Assembly: GCF_018350175.1 (NCBI RefSeq)
Contig: NC_058368.1
Coordinates: 26,228,001-26,292,000, forward strand
Direction of reading: 5' to 3'
Source: Felis catus
Taxonomy: Eukaryota
Length of the DNA: 64,000 bases
Both the position numbers and the translations under genes were made by a program. Every line of letters starts with the position of its first letter. Position 1 is the first letter of the stretch. The notes under the pieces are model-generated. The model saw nothing but the letters and a program-made list of their open reading frames with translations, was not told the DNA's origin and did not search any database. Positions 652 to 35,745 of this stretch are shown here, one piece after another.

Positions 652-3533
652 ATGCACCAGCCGCCTGAGTCCACCGCCGCGGCGGCCGCGGCCGCTGCAG
701 ACATTAGTGCTAGGAAGATGGCGCACCCGGCAATGTTCCCTAGAAGGGGCAGCGGTAGTGGCAGCGCCTCTGCTCTCAATGCAGCAGGTACCGGCGTTGG
801 TAGTAGTGCCACATCTTCCGAGGATTTTCCGCCTCCGTCGCTGCTCCAGCCGCCACCTCCTGCAGCATCTTCTACGTCGGGACCACAGCCTCCGCCTCCA
901 CAAAGCCTGAACCTCCTCTCTCAGGCTCAGCTGCAGGCACAGCCTCTTGCGCCAGGCGGAACTCAAATGAAAAAGAAAAGTGGCTTCCAGATAACTAGCG
1001 TTACCCCGGCGCAGATCTCCGCCAGCATCAGCTCTAACAACAGTATCGCAGAGGACACCGAGAGCTATGATGACCTGGATGAGTCTCACACGGAAGATCT
1101 GTCTTCTTCCGAGATCCTTGATGTGTCACTTTCCAGGGCTACTGACTTAGGGGAGCCTGAACGCAGCTCCTCAGAAGAGACTCTGAATAACTTCCAGGAA
1201 GCTGAGACACCTGGGGCAGTCTCTCCCAACCAGCCCCACCTTCCGCAGCCTCATTTGCCTCACCTTCCACAACAGAACGTTGTGATCAATGGGAATGCTC
1301 ATCCACACCACCTCCATCACCACCATCACATCCATCATGGGCACCACCTACACCATGGGCACCACCATCCATCCCATGCTGGTGTGGCCAGTACATCCAT
1401 TCCTGGAGGGCCACCCTCCAGTCCAGTATCCAGAAAACTCTCTGCAGCTGGAAGCTCTGACAGTGTTCTAGCAGCGGCCCCAACTTCTGCTGTATCATCG
1501 GGTGGCTCACCTGCATCTGTAATGACTAATATCCGTGCTCCAAGTACTACTGGCAGTATAGGTATAAGTTCTGTTACTGGCACTAATACAATGAGTAATG
1601 TCACCATTACTGCCGTGGGTAGTTTTAATCCTAGTGTGACAAGCAGCATACTTGGTAATGCTAATATAAATGCAAGCAATATTCCTAGTGCTGCTACTGT
1701 GAGTGTTGGGCCTGGAGTTAGCAGCAGTGTTAATGTGAATATCTTGAGTGGCATGGGCAATGGTACTATATCTTCCTCCGCTGTTGTTAACAGTGCCCCC
1801 AGTGCAGCTGCAGGGATGACTGCGGGGTCCCTTTCGGGTCAGCAGCAGCCACCAACAGTTAACACGTCAAGGTTCAGAGTTGTGAAGTTAGATTCTAGTT
1901 CTGAGCCCTTTAAAAAAGGCAGATGGACTTGCACCGAGTTCTATGAAAAAGAAAATGCTGTACCTGCTGCAGAAGGTGTGGCGATAAATAAAGTGGTGGA
2001 AACTGTAAAACAGAACCCGACAGAAGTGACTTCGGAGAGGGAGAGCACTAGTGGGAGTTCAGTGAGCAGTAGTGTCAGCACACTGAGTCACTACACGGAG
2101 AGTGTGGGAAGCGGAGAGATGGGAGCCCCTACTGTGGTGGTGCAGCAGCAGCAACAACCAGCTCTTCAAGGTATGGCTCTTCCCCAGATGGATTTCAGTA
2201 GCACTGGTCCCCAGAGTATTTCAGCAGTTAGCATTCCACAGAGTATTTCTCAGTCACAGATCACGCAAGTACAATTACAGTCTCAAGAACTGAGCTATCC
2301 TCAAAAGCAAGGTCTTCAGCCAGTACCTCTACAGGCCACTATCAGCGCTGCAACTGGTATCCAGCCGTCACCTGTTAGTGTGGTTGGTGTAACTTCAGCT
2401 TTAGGTCAGCAGCCTTCCATTTCCAGTCTGGCTCAACCCCAACTACCGTATTCTCAGACGGTTCCTCCAGTGCAAGCTCCCCTTCCAGGAGCACCACCCC
2501 AACAGTTACAGTATGGACAACAGCAGCCGACTGTCTCTACCCAGATGGTCCCAGGCCATGGTAAATCTGTGGCTCAGAATCCTTCAGAGTATGTGCAGCA
2601 GCAGCCGATTCTTCAAACAGCAGTGTCCTCCGGACAGCCCAGTTCTGCAGGAGTGGGAGCAGGAGCGACAGTGATTCCTACGGCTCAGCCACAGAGTATC
2701 CAGCTGCCAGTGCAGCCCACGGCAATCCAAGCACAACCTGCGGGGGCATCTGGCCAGCCTGTTGGCCAGGCTCAAACAGCAGTATCTGTTGTACCTACTG
2801 GCAGTCAAATTGCAAATATCGGTCAACAAGCAAACATACCTACTGCAGTGCAGCAGCCCTCTACCCAAGTCACACCTTCGGTTATTCAGCAAGGTGCTCC
2901 TCCATCTTCACAAATAGTTCCACCTGCTCAAACTGCGATTATTCATCAGGGAGTTCAAACTAGTGCGTCAAGCCTTCCTCAACAATTGGTCATTGCACCC
3001 CAGAGTACCTTGTTAACTGTGCCTCCCCAGCCACAAGGAGTAGAATCGGTAGCTCAAGTTGTTTCGCAGCCGTTGCCTGCAGTTAGTCCTTTGCCCTCTG
3101 CTAGTAGTATTTCTGTTACAAGTCAGGTTAGTTCAACTGGTCCTTCTGGAATGCCTTCTGCCCCAACAAACTTGGTTCCACCACAGAATATAGCACAAAC
3201 CCCTGCCACTCAAAATGGTAATTTGGTTCAAAGTGTTAGTCAACCTCCCTTGATAGCCAGTAACATAAATCTGCCTTTGGCACAACAGATACCACTAAGT
3301 TCTACTCAGTTCACTGCACAATCATTAGCTCAGGCAATTGGAAGCCAAATTGAAGATGCCAGGCGTCCAGCGGAACCCTCCTTAGTTGGCTTACCTCAGA
3401 CTATCAGTGGTGACAGTGGGGGAATGTCAGCAGTTTCAGATGGGAGTAGCAGCAGCCTAGCAGCCCCTGCTTCTCTTTTCCCGTTGAAGGTGCTACCGCT
3501 GACGACACCCCTGGTGGATGGCGAGGATGAGAG
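652..3533 (+). CDS. TSC22D1: TSC22 domain family protein 1, long isoform, coding exon 1 (960 codons plus 2 nt; gene continues beyond the window)
   Basis: ORF starts [34 protein letters not shown]. It contains [11 protein letters not shown] and [27 protein letters not shown] (conserved motifs 1 and 2 of long TSC22D/BunA proteins) and His- and Q/P/S-rich low-complexity tracts. It ends LVDGEDE at GAG|GTAAGA, a phase-2 donor where the known protein continues S-SSGASVVAIDNK. Confidence 0.98.
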
Positions 3534-3539
3534 GTAAGA
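3531..3539 (+). other. TSC22D1: 5' splice donor of intron 1 (GAG|GTAAGA)
   Basis: Near-consensus donor exactly where similarity to the known protein stops; GT at 3534-3535. Confidence 0.95.
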
Positions 3540-9950: not shown

Positions 9951-11459
9951 TACTGCACAATTAAATGTAAAAAATGATACTAATTTTAATAAAGTCATTG
10001 CTTCAAGATTTGATCTATAAGAGTATATAAATTTTAAGAGTCAAATTGCTTGGCTTATATCCAGTAGAAATAAGAATAGTATATAACGCAGTATTTCACT
10101 TCACAGAAGTGATTAGAAATGTTAGGATAAGCTTCAGTTAATATTTATTAACATGTTAAGCCAATTCAACAGCCTTGTGAGTTAAGTTTTTTCTGTTTTA
10201 CTGGTGAATAAACTGAAGCTTACTTAGTTTATTAGAGAGGTGGGATTGTCTCAGGTTACATACATAATACTAAAACAGCTAATAATAAAAATAATTTTTC
10301 TAATTAAAAATCTTCTGGTATTTCTAATAAAGCCAACAAGATGCCCATAAATATATCAGAGTGGCTGAAAACCTGAAAATAGGCAGGCTTCTTTGATTTG
10401 TGTATTACTACCAGTAACAGAATTACCGTAGAACATACCGACGTTTACCTATAAGCCCTTGGTGAGAAAAAAGGTGTGTAAAGTCATCACACTGGTGTGC
10501 CTGGCATGCAAGACATTCAAGTGTTAAATGAATTAATTTTAGTATGTTTTTTTTGAAAATCGTGTGAAAGTTATCTTTTCAGGAAAACCATTTTAATTTC
10601 CTAATAATTTAAATTCAGTCTTTGTAGAACTGCAAAACAAGTAGATTTTGTTTCTTGTATAGGAAGTTGAATTTAAAAATTTGAAACTATGCAAAGCATG
10701 ACCCGTTGTGGTGCTGCAATATTAGAAGCATGCTGCAATGTTAGAGCTCTGCTGGTTGGTTTTTGCTGCGTCACCATGGTGTTAGCATTGAATATGTCAT
10801 GGTAAGAGTATGCTTTCATGGCTCATTAAAAGAAATTACATGAGGGGAAAACAGTTTAAAGCATGTTTACATTATTTTAAAGAGCTTTATGTAATTAGTT
10901 TTAGAATCTAGGTTGACTTTTTTTTCTAGTCTCACATATATTTACGTGTCCTTCCTTCCACTCTTTCTTCTTCACCAGTTTGACCTGGAAATCATAACTT
11001 GGATTTTCAGTGTCATTGGGCCTAGATGAGCCTTGTTTTTCCTTTCTTGAAACATTCTCCTTTGCTTTCAGCGATCCCCTGGTACAGTTTCTTCCCACCT
11101 TTCTGGCCACTTTTTTTCAGTCTCTTTCAGATTCACCTATTCTCTCAGATTCAGTGTTGGAGTTCTTTTGAATTTCTGAGTCCTCTTCACACTTACTGCC
11201 TTTTCCCTGAGTAATCATCTGCTGTATGGCTTTAATACCGCCTGTATGCTATCCGTTTCTGAATGCGCACCACTAGCCCACACTTCTCATTGCATGTTAG
11301 AATGATCCAGTTATCTGCCTTCATAAAACAGCTCTGCATGTGTTCTCATAGGCCTCTCAACAGATCATAAACTTCTCTCTTTCTTCATTACCTAACTTCT
11401 CAAATTTCTTTCTGCTCTGTCATCTTCATTTTAATAATTATTTCTTTTTTGCTTGTTGT

Positions 11460-31106: not shown

Positions 31107-32940
31107 GGACTCCTGAAAATACCTAGAGTGCCATTCTTGAGATATTTAGTATTCAGATCTTTTTCTAATTTGTACTTCCTTCCTGTCATCGTCCCTCATA
31201 TACCTCCTCAATGTGATTATACTGTAAAATACTGTTGTAAGCTACTGGTTAAAAAGTATAGTCTTTAAAACTAAAAGACCTGAGGATTTAAAATCTATTG
31301 GAAACTTAAAATAAGAAAATAGCTGCCACATAGGCTTGTAAAGTACTTTCGTACTAATTTATTTGCTACCTCTTGCTAGATGGAAGTTTCACCCCGTTGA
31401 CTTCTTTTAGATTTCTTTTTTCACTTCTTTACATTTTGGAAATCACAGATTTGATGGTTAAATCATAGATTTTCTTTTCTTAGTCCAAACTGTTTTCATT
31501 TCTCACTTGTACAGAATTGAATATATTCCTAAAGCAGAAGGGTTAGCTTGTTCTTTCTTCTTCAGGCTTTTAAAAAAAAATTGAGTCTAAATATTGTTAG
31601 GTAATGGAATAACGATTCCTTTTCAGCTGTGTTGGTATATTTCCAAACTGGCTGGCAGAGCCAGGAGGAAGTGAAGGCATTAAAACACTAACTTTGGTTG
31701 GTTGCTACCTTCTTAGTGCTGAGACTATAACCTTTGTTGGTTGATTGATAGAGAACAAGAGAGCACAGTCCTCGTTCCACTAACAGGTAAGGAACCCTTG
31801 TGATAACCAGTTGGCGTGAGAAAGAAAATTACTTGATTAGCAGTTTTTTTCTTAATTTATCCCCAAATATAACATGTCCATGAAATAGGATAGTGTGATT
31901 ATGTTCAATACAACAGGAATGTGCAGCACCTTTCTAGTTAGAAGAAGATCTGAAATTTAATAGGGATATATCACTCTGTACCACAAAGTATAATTGGTCT
32001 GTTTTCCACTGTTAAAATTTATCCTGCAGTCCCTATAACTTTAAATACATATCTGCCTATCTTATTCTCCTTTCAGCTTTTCCTTGATCAGATGCTATGT
32101 GCTTTGAACTTCCTTCTCTTATTTACCTTATTCCTATAATAAAGCAAACTATTTTCCAGTATCTTTGTCATCATCTATTATTTGAGTATATCTTACTGCT
32201 TTAATTTCTGCATTGTAGCCATTAATGATTTATTTCCTGGTCCTTCTTGACCCAAAACCAAATGATCATACATTTAAAAAAGATTTTTAGATTGTATTAC
32301 CTATGTACAGTATTCTGCCCTCCCACTTTTAAATATGAGTGCTTGAAGAAAAACTCTTTTTCAGTGATGGTGGTCCTAGCTTGATAAAATTTAGGTTTAG
32401 CTTTGTATTGCTATAATGTGGGACTGTAGTTTAAGTCTTTAAATTACTGAAGACTTAAAAACAAGAACAAATTCAGCTTCTTAGACACTTCCCAAAGTTT
32501 AGTAGTGTTCCTGTTAATATGCTTGATTATTCTGTTTCTCCTTTTCAATCCATCTTCTTCTCTTTGACAGAAGAATTAACTGGGACTCCTCCTTTGATAT
32601 AGCGGAGGTCGAGTTCCTTTCCCTGTCCCTTTAAGACAACTGTGCTGCTGTGCTCTTGTTCTAGTCATAATTTATCATTTTTTGATTCGGTCTTCCACTT
32701 GAAGTTGGGTGGTTTGTCACAGAGTGTGTTATGGCTTACACCAAGATAGGTCCCTTCTTAATAGGTTACTGAAGAATTAATCGTTTGTGGTGACAGATTT
32801 CAAAGATTCAAATTAAGAAGGCACTAAAGAAAGTGTGCCCAAAGGTAGCTCCTTTTTATCCTGAGGATAAGTCATTGCAAACTCAAATGACCAGAGAATG
32901 TAATTTCTTAATAAGAATTTTTTCTTAAATCTATATTCAG

Positions 32941-33028
32941 CTCTCTATTTCAGTGCTTCTCTCCTACCAGAGGTGCAAGGAGTGATCCTAGAACCACAGA
33001 TACAGCCAAGACCACGGAGAGCTTTTGA
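32941..33028 (+). CDS. TSC22D1: Putative alternative coding exon of TSC22D1 giving C-terminus (S)SLFQCFSPTRGARSDPRTTDTAKTTESF* (no TSC box)
   Basis: Acceptor ttttttcttaaatctatattcAG (32939-40); phase-2 join to exon 1 is open to TGA 33026-28; candidate donor CAA|GTGGGT at 33110/33111. I recall this peptide from a human isoform annotation (unverified). Confidence 0.6.
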
Positions 33029-34009
33029 CGTCAGGGGTCCACTTTCTCCACTGAACCCTTGGAGGCAGAATATCCAGCTTCTGGAGAGAGTGGGAAAGGA
33101 TAATAAACAAGTGGGTGCTTTCCATTATTTACTTGGGTTTATTTATAGATCGGAGTGTCCGTCCATTGCCCATTTAATTCTATTGGTGTACTCCTTGGGT
33201 TCATATAAGAACCAAGTGGGGCTGCAATCTGTTTGTTTTTTCTTGAGAATGCTAACTAGTGCCCATTCAGAAAAGAGGCCTAAAATTTATTTAATTTTCT
33301 CTCCAGATAATTAAAGCAGTGGATGATTTGGGGCACTAGATTTGGTGACTGCCTGTGTTAAGTGCACAGGAATTTTTAAAAGGAATATTTGCCCATTTTA
33401 ATGTTTAATGGTATTAGTGGACTTCTAAGTGCTCTTTTATTACCGGAAGGTAAAAAAGAAGTTTTTGTATTTCATCTTTGGGCAAGCTGGACATCTGAGC
33501 TCTCCTAATTTGCACAAGTCTGATGTCCAGGTGTTATCCTACCCTGTTAGAGAGAACTTTTTGGTCTTTTTCCTACCTCAAACTTTAGGACTTCATATTA
33601 ATTAGATCTTTTAGAAGATACAATGATAGTACCATTATGGTTTTACTGTCAAATTGAGGCTTCATTCTTTAATGAGATAAATGTGAATGAATATAAGTTT
33701 CAGGATATATTATCCCTGAAAGCTATGTTAAATATATACTCATAAGTAGTTTTCCAGTCCCTAGGAATAATGTTATTTGTGGCAAAAGAGCCTTGTCCTA
33801 GATGTTTCCCATGGCATTAAGATGGTTTTCTCTTAGTTTCTTTGATGCCAAGGGTAGGATTTGATTCCAGGAAGTTCTTATCATCTACAATGGGTAGAAC
33901 ATGACTTTGGTGTCTTTGGCAAGTTTTCATTTTTCCTTGGTGGATTCCTTCTGTGACTCCAGGTATCTTGATAATGGGAGACCGGTTTATTTGTTCTCTA
34001 ATTGCCCAG

Positions 34010-35745
34010 ATTTCTTTCAACTGGTAAACATCATACTTCTTCAGCAAAAGGAACTCTTCTAGCAGAGCCTTCATGGATGATATCTGTCACACATGCAGCA
34101 CCTGCAGTTTGGAAGGCAGTGGTGAACGGAGCCACGCAATATATCTAGAAGACACAAGGATGAGAGAGCCACCTGATCTTGTCATTTATAAACTTTAAGA
34201 TTTACTCTCGTGTACTCTTGGTCTGGAAACGGAAAGGCTCAAATAATGAAATAATTTTTTCAGATTGGAGTTTTACATGGCCATGCAAATATTCCTTTCT
34301 ATTCAGAAGACTGAAATAGAGAAAGTATGAGAGACTCCTTTCTTTTAAAAGCAGCTCTCTGTTTCACTTAAAAGATTTGTGGGATTGAAAATCACCTTAA
34401 TGAAGCAGGCAAATTTTTTGTTTTTAGTAGTATAGGAGATCCAGAAAACTTACAAAATTATTTTTTGTTGCCTGGCATTGAAAGGAACTAGTAAATAAAA
34501 AGGTGAACTTCTTAACTATTTCCAAATTGCTTTTATTATTAGGATACACTCTTTTAGCTTATCTTTTTCTGCTCTTGAGCCTTCTTATTTGTCAAGTCAA
34601 CAAAGGTTCCAGTATAGAAGTAGAGGAGACATCTTCTGAGATCAAAGTAGCTTGTTCGGTCTTCTAAAGTAGTAAATACCTGTTAAATTTGAGGTATTGT
34701 TCTGCATTGAAGGCATTCTAAAGTTTGAACGATACTGAAACAAAGACGCATGTAGAGAGCACAGGCAGTTAGTAGTATGGGCATAAGTCTCCACATGTGA
34801 ATAAGTGTTGCAAAACATTTGATCCAAACGGAAGTAGTTATCAAAATGTTTCTGTTTTTCTCTTTGGCATCTATTAACTGATCAGTCAAAAGCTATTAAA
34901 GAAGTTTTTAAAAGCTACCTGATGCTGCCAGTTTGTTTTATTTGGTATAAAGTTTAGGAATAAGAATCCTCGAGTTATTAATATGGAAGCATCTAAAATG
35001 ATCTTGAAGGTCTTAGGAGCCACATTTGCTAAGTTATACCTGGCGTGTCGCCTCTCTATGAGACCTTTTTTTCCCCCCATTAGTTACGAATTTTTGTATA
35101 GTACTTAAAGGTTTAAAAGATCAGTTTGAACTAAAATTTCTGTAGGGAGCTCTGAATTCCCATAAACGATTATAGCTTTGTATGCTTGATTTGTTTTTGT
35201 TAAATTTGGATAAGAGTCTTCACAGACACCTATAAATTAAAAAATAACTACCCAACATTTTAGAAAGAACTGAGGGGAACTGAAAGTGAAATTTGCTTGG
35301 AAATTAAGCTAGTTGAACTCTTGGAACCACAGTACCAACAAGTTTATGGCCTGTGCGATTAGCCTTTTGTTTCAGTTTTAAAGATGAAAAGTGATTTAAT
35401 CTCTTAACCTCATGCTTTGATTAAATTTTAGCTCTGTTCCTTAAAGTGTGCAAAAGAAATGTAAGTGCATTTAATTCACCTCATGCCACTAAAAGCTATT
35501 TAAAAGTGAAACTTTTTGTATATTAATGTGAACTGATTTGTTTATTTAAACTTTTATTTTGATACATTTTCCTTTCAGATTTTTCAATATTTCGTGTCAC
35601 TATGCAATCCTATATTTTTCAGTGTTTATTTTATGATTATTAGTATAAGCTAATTTTTTTTCCTAGAATGACTAATTGTGTAATATTTGTACTATGTGAT
35701 CATTTGAAAACTAATAAATATTTTCTCCATGAAAAAAATGCACTT
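34010..35745 (+). other. TSC22D1: Putative alternative last exon / 3'UTR of TSC22D1
   Basis: Acceptor tttatttgttctctaattgcccAG (34008-09), repeat-free U-rich UTR-like sequence with several TGTA motifs, AATAAA at 35713-35718. Confidence 0.5.
35713..35718 (+). terminator. Candidate polyadenylation signal AATAAA
   Basis: Preceded by TGTA motifs (tgtgtaatatttgtact) and followed by a T-rich stretch at about 35760. Confidence 0.5.

Follow-up and report, generated by a model that had tools for sequence, protein, structure and literature searches.

A conserved alternative exon in the first intron of mammalian TSC22D1 that would truncate the long isoform before its dimerisation domain

Introduction

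TSC22D1 is a single gene whose products, TSC22D1.1 and TSC22D1.2, differ in domain content and possibly act in opposition (PMC12266109, PMC12838652). TSC22D proteins form homo- and heterodimers via the leucine zipper that constitutes the TSC22 domain, and their RFxV and RWxC motifs are reported to bind the OSR1 and SPAK CCT domains as well as the CCT-like domain of NRBP1 (PMC12413468, PMC12266109). The long TSC22D proteins, NRBP1 and the WNK kinases are linked in cell-volume and renal salt control, and the TSC22 domain is stated to be present in all isoforms (PMC12266109). Here we describe an alternative exon in the first intron of TSC22D1, located in a 64,000-nucleotide (nt) stretch of the domestic cat genome (Felis catus, RefSeq assembly GCF_018350175.1, contig NC_058368.1, positions 26,228,001 to 26,292,000 of the forward strand; hereafter the window). 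The short TSC22D isoforms known so far lack the docking motifs of the N-terminal part and retain the TSC22 domain; the alternative-tail forms considered here would do the reverse.

Several described splicing systems are close to this exon. Alternative 3' splice sites include the NAGNAG tandem acceptors, with a spacing of 3, as well as wider-spaced tandem acceptors; dual-coding alternative exons are known from CDKN2A (p16INK4a/ARF) and GNAS (XLas/ALEX); and splicing-factor genes carry highly conserved premature-stop ("poison") exons. The TSC22D1 exon has three candidate acceptors, named AG1, AG2 and AG3 from 5' to 3'. Like tandem alternative 3' splice sites, these AGs stand behind one branch-like site, and two of them are used in gene models of the same species; unlike the NAGNAG class, they are 13 and 17 nt apart, so that moving from one AG to another alters the frame and does not simply insert a residue. 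As in CDKN2A and GNAS, one stretch, here of 71 nt, is read in two frames of annotated products; unlike in those genes, only the AG2 frame shows signs of being kept, the AG1 tail being seen only in Boreoeutheria and lost or shifted in several lineages. The exon also shares with poison exons a premature stop on inclusion, frozen synonymous sites and conserved intron flanks, but several of its stops lie where nonsense-mediated decay should not act, and TSC22D1 is no splicing factor, nor do we know of any link of this gene to autoregulation.

Results and discussion

Three acceptors, one donor and two open frames

The coding part of exon 1 ends in phase 2 (..GAT GAG AG; protein ...PLVDGEDE), and its residues 840-960 are 100% identical to a TSC22D1 protein cluster whose named members are all cats. 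The alternative exon sits 29.4 kb inside the first intron, which is about 130 kb long; the canonical exon 2 (CTCCTCTGG...GCTATG, 52 nt) and the TSC-box exon lie outside the window, at window coordinates of about 131.8 kb and about 133011 (~133.0 kb), respectively. The features of the locus are collected in Table 1.

The three CAG acceptors end at 32940, 32953 and 32970, and the 20 nt 5' of each AG hold 15, 15 and 16 pyrimidines for AG1, AG2 and AG3, respectively. The sole nearby YTNAY branch-point-like site is TTAAT at 32908-32912; the distances from its A to AG1, AG2 and AG3 are 29, 42 and 59 nt. Entry at AG1 gives, from 32942, the frame SLFQCFSPTRGARSDPRTTDTAKTTESF-stop, a 29-residue tail. 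Entry at AG2 gives, from 32955, the frame ASLLPEVQGVILEPQIQPRPRRAFDVRGPLSPLNPWRQNIQLLERVGKDNKQ up to 33110, a 52-residue tail; this is the only one of the three frames that is open through the whole exon, and it stays open until a TAA at 33312-14. The frame entered from AG3 (from 32972) is the same as that from 32942. At the 3' end, CAA/GTGGGT (33110/11) is the best GT site within 32941-33330, and it serves all gene models in which ...DNKQ is followed by ISFNW, VS or LLWCKCGSY. The AG positions, a pyrimidine run for each AG, both frames, their stops and the donor had been put forward in a sequence-only reading of the window, and all of these coordinates proved correct when the sequence was read again.

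None of the possible exon lengths (170, 157 and 140 nt) is divisible by three, so that in each case the frame closes short of the TSC box and the leucine zipper. Inclusion thus brings a premature stop in every form, at 33026-28, 33969-71, 34025-27 or within exon 2.

When acceptor-like YAGs were defined by at least 15 pyrimidines in the 20 nt upstream, clusters of three such sites within 31 nt occurred twice on the plus strand and not at all on the minus strand of the 64-kb window, one of the two being the present site. The triple-acceptor pattern is uncommon yet could arise by chance, and it carries weight because of the cross-species gene models described below. The exon stretch is single-copy in the 2.43-Gb genome (71 contigs). 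A paralogous or repeat origin was rejected, the genome search with the tail having returned the locus itself plus two stop-containing matches (E = 0.3 and 1.3). On the opposite strand beneath the exon, the longest stop-to-stop frame has 59 codons and suggests no gene.

Table 1 Features of the TSC22D1 locus in the window
Feature	Position	Strand	Remarks
TSC22D1 long-isoform exon 1, coding part	652..3533	+	Open reading frame, 961 codons including the split codon
RFRV, CCT-domain docking motif	1870..1881	+	Residue 407; GRWTC 17 residues later
Exon-1 splice donor GTAAGA	3534..3539	+	GAG/GTAAGA at 3533/3534; 7/9 matches to CAGGTAAGT
Conserved intron flank 5' of the exon	32824..32940	+	TTAAT branch-like site and AG1 pyrimidine tract; alignment, branch-site scan
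Acceptor AG1	32939..32940	+	Exon from 32941, S-SLFQCFSPTR...TTESF-stop
Alternative exon	32941..33110	+	170 nt (AG1), 157 nt (AG2) or 140 nt (AG3)
Acceptor AG2	32952..32953	+	Exon from 32954, S-ASLLPEVQG...DNKQ
Acceptor AG3	32969..32970	+	Exon would start at 32971, R-GARSDPR...
RAFDV in AG2 frame	33018..33032	+	R-x-F-x-V pattern; RAFDA in giant panda records
TGA stop of AG1/AG3 frame	33026..33028	+	82 nt 5' of the exon's donor
AATAAA hexamer	33102..33107	+	3 nt before donor 33110/11; consensus match only
Donor GTGGGT of the alternative exon	33111..33116	+	CAA/GTGGGT, 33110/11; 6/9 consensus matches
Donor read-through VGAFHY...IFSPDN-stop	33111..33314	+	TAA 33312-14; Cheetah X1 and Geoffroy's cat X1 reach the same stop
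Second alternative exon, upstream acceptor	33961..33962	+	...DNKQ-VS-stop (GTA TCT TGA), entry 33963
Second alternative exon, acceptor 34008-09	34010..34027	+	ISFNW, then TAA 34025-27
AATAAA, candidate polyadenylation signal	34494..34499	+	If the 34010 exon is terminal; consensus match only

Gene models of many mammals use AG1 and AG2

We sorted 193 records of long TSC22D1 that hold the end of exon 1 by their continuation. This is a non-random sample, drawn from an exon-1-end protein search (best 120 of 239 matches), an AG2-tail search (54 matches) and the listed members of five clusters. The results showed that 69 of the 193 listed records follow the canonical SS(S)GASVVAIDNK continuation into the TSC box, 72 continue from AG2 (SASLLPEVQG...) and 24 from AG1 (SSLFQCFSPTR...). 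Two records, Mus musculus X7 and Mus spicilegus, enter at AG3 (R-GTRSDPR...), and two, from Mastomys and Heterocephalus, carry a third-frame SSISVLLSYQRCKE-stop; a further 14 end at exon 1, and 10 bear other lineage-specific tails. At the level of gene models, the exon is thus dual-coding, the same 71 nt being read in one frame by the AG1 records and in another by the AG2 records.

The 15 felid records comprise four canonical, nine AG2, two AG1 and no AG3 continuations. AG1 is found in the X2 models of tiger and lion, and AG2 in jaguar, leopard cat and domestic cat X3; taken together, the felid models show the AG1, AG2, read-through and cassette forms. Both acceptors are modelled in the same species in Pongo pygmaeus (X3/X4), Lemur catta (X2/X4) and meerkat (X2/X3). 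Records of orang-utan, siamang and macaque bear alternative tails, and no Homo sapiens record appeared in any protein listing obtained here.

Predicted TSC22D1 isoforms in public annotation, such as X2/X3 of Panthera tigris, Panthera leo, Panthera onca, Prionailurus bengalensis and Felis catus together with their counterparts in some 50 further mammals, have tails and junctions identical to those read from the window, namely SSLFQCFSPTR...TTESF, SASLLPEVQG...DNKQISFNW, the ...IFSPDN read-through, ...DNKQVS and ...DNKQLLWCKCGSY. Compared with the public felid isoforms there is no structural difference; the window has Ser for Leu in the read-through, and AG3 models come from Mus only. The structure of the alternative exon is therefore already in public annotation, cats included, and is not a discovery.

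Support independent of gene prediction comes from Logan contigs. Two AG1-tail proteins are encoded by contigs of 4317 and 3314 nt, which represent spliced RNA because exon 1 and the tail are 29 kb apart in the window genome, and one protein with the AG2 tail and ISFNW is likewise on record from Logan.

Downstream of the exon, the endings ISFNW-stop, VS-stop and LLWCKCGSY-stop fall precisely on 34010, 33963 and canonical exon 2, respectively. Most AG2 records splice to the small exon at 34010, and ...DNKQISFNW ends 28 records, marsupials among them. Entry at 33963, 47 nt 5' of 34010, leads to the stop at 33969-71 and is seen in six records, two of them felid. In the cassette form, DNKQ is joined to canonical exon 2 read in phase 0 (LLWCKCGSY-stop), with a stop 22 nt before the exon 2/3 junction. 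The read-through form stops in other species after 19 to 48 residues, with frame shifts in some.

Overall, the interpretation offered by the sequence-only reading is partly supported. AG1, AG2, both frames, the donor at 33110/11 and read-through to 33312-14 are matched by models in many mammals including felids; AG3, which it had proposed as a third usable acceptor, is modelled only in Mus (2 of 193 listed records, 0 of 15 felid records). Its suspicion that part of the exon might already be annotated turned out to be right for non-human mammals.

The AG2 frame is old and appears to be the maintained one

The AG2 tail is present in all placental superorders and in six marsupials (54 cluster representatives in the tail search). 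The marsupial tails show 91-92% identity, with 4 or 5 of the 52 positions different and ISFNW kept, and 43 of the 72 listed AG2 records are identical to the window across all 52 residues. A dedicated search with the AG1 tail yielded 16 clusters, all from Boreoeutheria, and two frame-shifted forms. An all-library HMMER search with the 52 residues (7 matches) found no non-therian homologue of the AG2 tail, a weak negative as it covers 50%-identity representatives only. P0205, an 840-residue tandem-repeat protein with 38% identity, was regarded as spurious as a tail homologue. Two degenerate-pattern scans of metagenome contigs for the tail found no orthologous DNA.

On this sequence comparison, the AG2 frame is favoured as the old, maintained frame, and the AG1 frame is probably a by-product. 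The two substitutions observed among AG1 tails, in Catagonus (32993) and Ochotona princeps (33002), each leave the AG2-frame peptide unchanged. In Mus, Nycticebus, Condylura, Mastomys and Heterocephalus the AG1 tail has been replaced or has shifted, the last two using the third frame with a stop after 14 residues. Independent indels join the proximal AG1 frame to the distal AG2 frame in Mus, Nycticebus, Condylura and two genomic open reading frames, where the shifted tails read ...PRPRRAFDV... or ...FDVR...DNKQ, and the Mus model enters at the AG3 counterpart. With these lineage-specific entries, all three AGs are used somewhere among mammals and the distal AG2 peptide stays readable. Pointing the other way, of five AG2-frame changes within the overlap four leave the AG1 peptide as it is, and caution is needed as annotation pipelines prefer long open reading frames. 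The overlap hardly varies, which leaves little to tell selection on one frame from selection on the other. The earlier description of the exon as dual-frame holds for gene models; as protein, the AG1 frame appears unconstrained, being replaced or shifted in at least five lineages. What is new here is that the AG2 frame is old and maintained, the AG1 frame probably a by-product, and AG3 supported only in Mus.

Alternative products would keep the docking region and lose the TSC22 domain

The alternative products P0185 and P0187 have no Pfam match, and the canonical product P0184 matches PF01166 with 97 bits; none of the 54 tail-bearing cluster representatives contains PF01166. The prediction that the alternative proteins would have no TSC22 domain is therefore borne out. 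Equally, the view that exon 1 carries the docking motifs for kinase partners agrees with its RFRV (407) and GRWTC, which match the reported RFxV and RWxC. The RFRV context is identical to that of the human F407 motif (PMC12413468, supplement file 3), which bound the OSR1/SPAK CCT domains and NRBP1 (PMC12413468), and GRWTC corresponds to the RWxC motif of PMC12266109. The functional idea of the sequence-only reading, a switch to long proteins that would dock kinase partners and fail to dimerise, is thus a reasonable hypothesis.

Such a form would have practical consequences. The long isoform has been studied with C-terminal tags (PMC12413468), and a conserved long isoform without the TSC22 domain would escape both these and reagents against the C-terminal domain. 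It could also act as a monomeric competitor for docking partners. The gain over existing annotation is limited: the exon is very old and very strongly conserved, its AG2 frame is kept, and it is unstudied according to our searches.

Truncated protein or regulatory exon

The analysis shows that the exon exists, how gene models splice it and that it is conserved, and we consider it probable that this is a genuine TSC22D1 alternative exon, conserved across therian mammals, that truncates the long protein before the dimerisation domain. In the mechanism we propose, the phase-2 donor of exon 1 (3533) would be joined to one of two tandem acceptors 13 nt apart. AG2 (32954) would give the main, old product, a 52-residue tail usually continued via the 33110 donor into the 34010 exon (ISFNW-stop), and less often ending in VS-stop (47 nt earlier), in canonical exon 2 (LLWCKCGSY-stop) or by read-through of the weak donor. 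AG1 (32941) would shift the frame to a 29-residue tail, most likely a by-product, and AG3 would be productive only in Mus, where an indel altered the frame relations. The predicted outcome is a long TSC22D1 that keeps the RFxV/RWxC docking region without the dimerisation domain, and conservation of the flanking intron would reflect regulated inclusion.

A number of observations weigh against this proposal. Within the 71 nt shared by the two frames, as many as 211 of the 213 possible single-base changes would modify one peptide or both, yet several species for which both tails are annotated match the window in each, namely felids, meerkat, orang-utan, pig-tailed macaque, ring-tailed and mouse lemurs and pangolin. 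Since both tails are unchanged across these species, sites that are synonymous in either frame are frozen; synonymous sites usually differ by roughly a third between carnivores and primates. Nor are second codon positions of the AG2 frame spared: the 18 AG2-frame variant types, counted without four rows from the Oryx frameshift, are distributed 5:11:2 over codon positions 1:2:3, the corresponding opportunities being 146:156:50, and the conservation is not codon-shaped. Both intron flanks are conserved as well. In cetaceans the tail ends early, with ...ERVGKG-stop, so the last residues of the AG2 tail are dispensable there. The gene models are predictions that may in part have been propagated by homology between species, and splice use is known from these cross-species models and Logan contigs. 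A full-text literature search, most subscription journals lying outside its scope, did not find either of two tail peptides, and a 2026 review gives human isoforms of 1073, 144 and 86 residues only (PMC12838652). As far as these searches show, there is no study of the alternative exon.

A question raised from these observations is whether the exon is mainly regulatory, with inclusion diverting long-isoform pre-mRNA to truncated or unstable transcripts and thereby tuning full-length TSC22D1.1, the tails being by-products and the conservation residing in splicing-regulatory RNA sequence. We take this to be a serious possibility, albeit a rather unlikely one. Besides the freezing of synonymous sites in both frames, it would account for amino-acid changes without codon-position bias, for frameshifting indels tolerated in at least five lineages, and for conservation that extends about 115 nt 5' of AG1 and 60-135 nt beyond the donor, with stops varying there. 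Upstream, the genomic open reading frames P0209 and P0204, read in an arbitrary frame, align about 115 nt and about 50 nt beyond AG1 (23 of 33 and 15 of 21 residues, respectively); downstream, the read-through translation is alignable for 19 residues in marsupials and for about 30-45 in many placentals, with varying stops and late frames. The exon and its flanks are conserved to a degree that needs explanation, and this conservation, blind to codons, favours the regulatory account, fitting constraint on RNA at least as well as a protein switch. Judged by the sequence pattern, the flanks and synonymous sites point to regulated splicing, either alongside protein constraint or in its place. The pattern resembles that of regulated alternative exons with conserved intronic elements, and alone it cannot show protein constraint.

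The positions of the stops bear on the same question. Nonsense-mediated decay usually acts on a stop more than about 50-55 nt before the last junction; use of AG1 with the 33110/11 donor places the stop 82 nt before the junction, beyond this limit. The cassette stop, however, lies only 22 nt before the exon 2/3 junction, and the ISFNW stop may sit in a terminal exon (AATAAA at 34494), so that several forms should escape decay. These several stop positions argue against simple nonsense-mediated decay. Also running counter to a purely regulatory exon, a different acceptor continues to give access to the distal AG2 frame after indels, which hints at a value of the protein itself. A structured RNA was rejected, the fold of 32900-33260 being unremarkable (z = -1.18; 14 of 100 shuffles fold equally well). 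The same literature search found nothing tying TSC22D1 to "poison exon", and none of the work it found on TSC22D1 and "intronic polyadenylation" concerned the alternative exon.

Other explanations

A bolder version of the truncated-protein proposal would make the distal AG2 peptide (…RRAFDVRGPLSPLNPWRQNIQLLERVGKDNKQ) a functional C-terminal module with an extra R-x-F-x-V CCT-docking motif, and the three AGs a frame selector, each lineage having one AG that would hold the peptide open to translation despite the indels of that lineage (AG2 for most therians, AG3 for Mus, AG1 for Nycticebus and Condylura). TSC22D proteins would then include a third class, long and without the TSC22 domain, which docks WNK/SPAK/OSR1/NRBP1 and does not dimerise; if true, this would contradict the statement that the TSC22 domain is in all isoforms. 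We find this doubtful. A motif of the R-x-F-x-V type arose in 1034 of 20000 composition-matched shuffles (5%).

It is very unlikely that the exon is instead part of an in-frame insertion module, in which the 157-nt exon and a 14-nt micro-exon (34010-34023) would together add 171 nt, or 57 codons, ahead of exon 2 and the TSC box, ISFNW-stop being read-through of the micro-exon donor. The arithmetic and sequence fit, as TG and the C of exon 2 would form Cys, followed by SSGASVV, and the TAA stop is part of the donor-like site's GTAA. UCUCU and UGC, which resemble reported enhancers of neuronal micro-exons, stand directly 5' of the 34009 acceptor, and a candidate at 35432-35460 (29 nt, then GTAAGT) would restore the frame too (157 + 29 = 186 nt). 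Each frame-restoring length, however, has a 1 in 3 chance of occurring by accident, and the donor-like CTG/GTAAAC has only 6 of 9 consensus matches. A continuation into the TSC box occurs in 0 of the 72 listed AG2-frame records, nor does any of the 54 tail-bearing representatives carry PF01166; this absence is weak evidence, as in-frame isoforms could hide within 90%-identity clusters.

Finally, splicing noise over an unrelated conserved non-coding element such as an enhancer, copied between species by annotation pipelines, would agree with a conserved block wider than the exon and with the absence of alternative-tail isoforms from the literature found, but is hardly tenable, given that the NCBI and Ensembl/UniProt pipelines and raw Logan transcript contigs agree on the junctions, that the same downstream partners (33963, 34010, exon 2) recur from order to order, and that the AG2 frame alone of the three stays open through the exon.

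Additional observations on the locus

The other triple YAG cluster of the window lies at 11100-11150 (TTTCAG, TTTCAG, TCTCAG), likewise within intron 1. Scanning 32000-35000 with Rfam gave only two matches, both below threshold and on the minus strand at 34234-34384 (E = 0.13 and 0.54), which were rejected as an RNA family. U/GU-rich sequence follows the AATAAA at 33102-33107. If U1 binding failed and cleavage followed this hexamer, AG1 transcripts would have a normal stop and a short 3' untranslated region, and AG2 transcripts would be stopless; the KDKKQ tails of horse and flying fox imply an altered hexamer there.

In the read-through, 33151-33153 encodes Ser (TCG, which contains a CpG; IYRSECPS), where other felids and most placentals have Leu (IYRLECPS); marsupial and flying-fox read-through records have Ser at this position too. 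The second alternative exon has tandem acceptors 47 nt apart (33963 and 34010), both found in felid models, and its first 14 nt (34010-34023) are followed by the donor-like CTG/GTAAAC, whose GTAA supplies the TAA stop. Further downstream, the candidate exon at 35432-35466 reads ttttag/CTCTGTTCC...GAAAT/GTAAGT (29 nt, 35432-35460), and the tail of a vampire bat model, LCSLKCAKEM-stop, is a read-through of its donor.

In Cetartiodactyla, an indel and a shifted donor are implied (proteins P0136-P0138, P0116 and P0206). In Oryx and a ruminant-like open reading frame, ...ERVGKG is followed by the 33963 or 34010 exon, read in other frames, and if the cetartiodactyl exon length were a multiple of three, a direct splice to exon 2 would be in frame. 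Muroid rodents have a different tail after exon 1, SFGLFPPWLPEPGGSEG... (P0060, P0067, P0073, P0108, P0117 and P0118); four of these six records are from named muroids and the other two are Logan-derived, and the tail was not found in the window. The start of canonical exon 2 also varies, with SSSGASVV after exon 1 in most species and SSGASVV in rodents and one elephant record. A 3-nt difference at the exon 2 acceptor, through a tandem acceptor or a lineage indel, would explain this; canonical exon 2 is at L010 1486-1537, outside the window.

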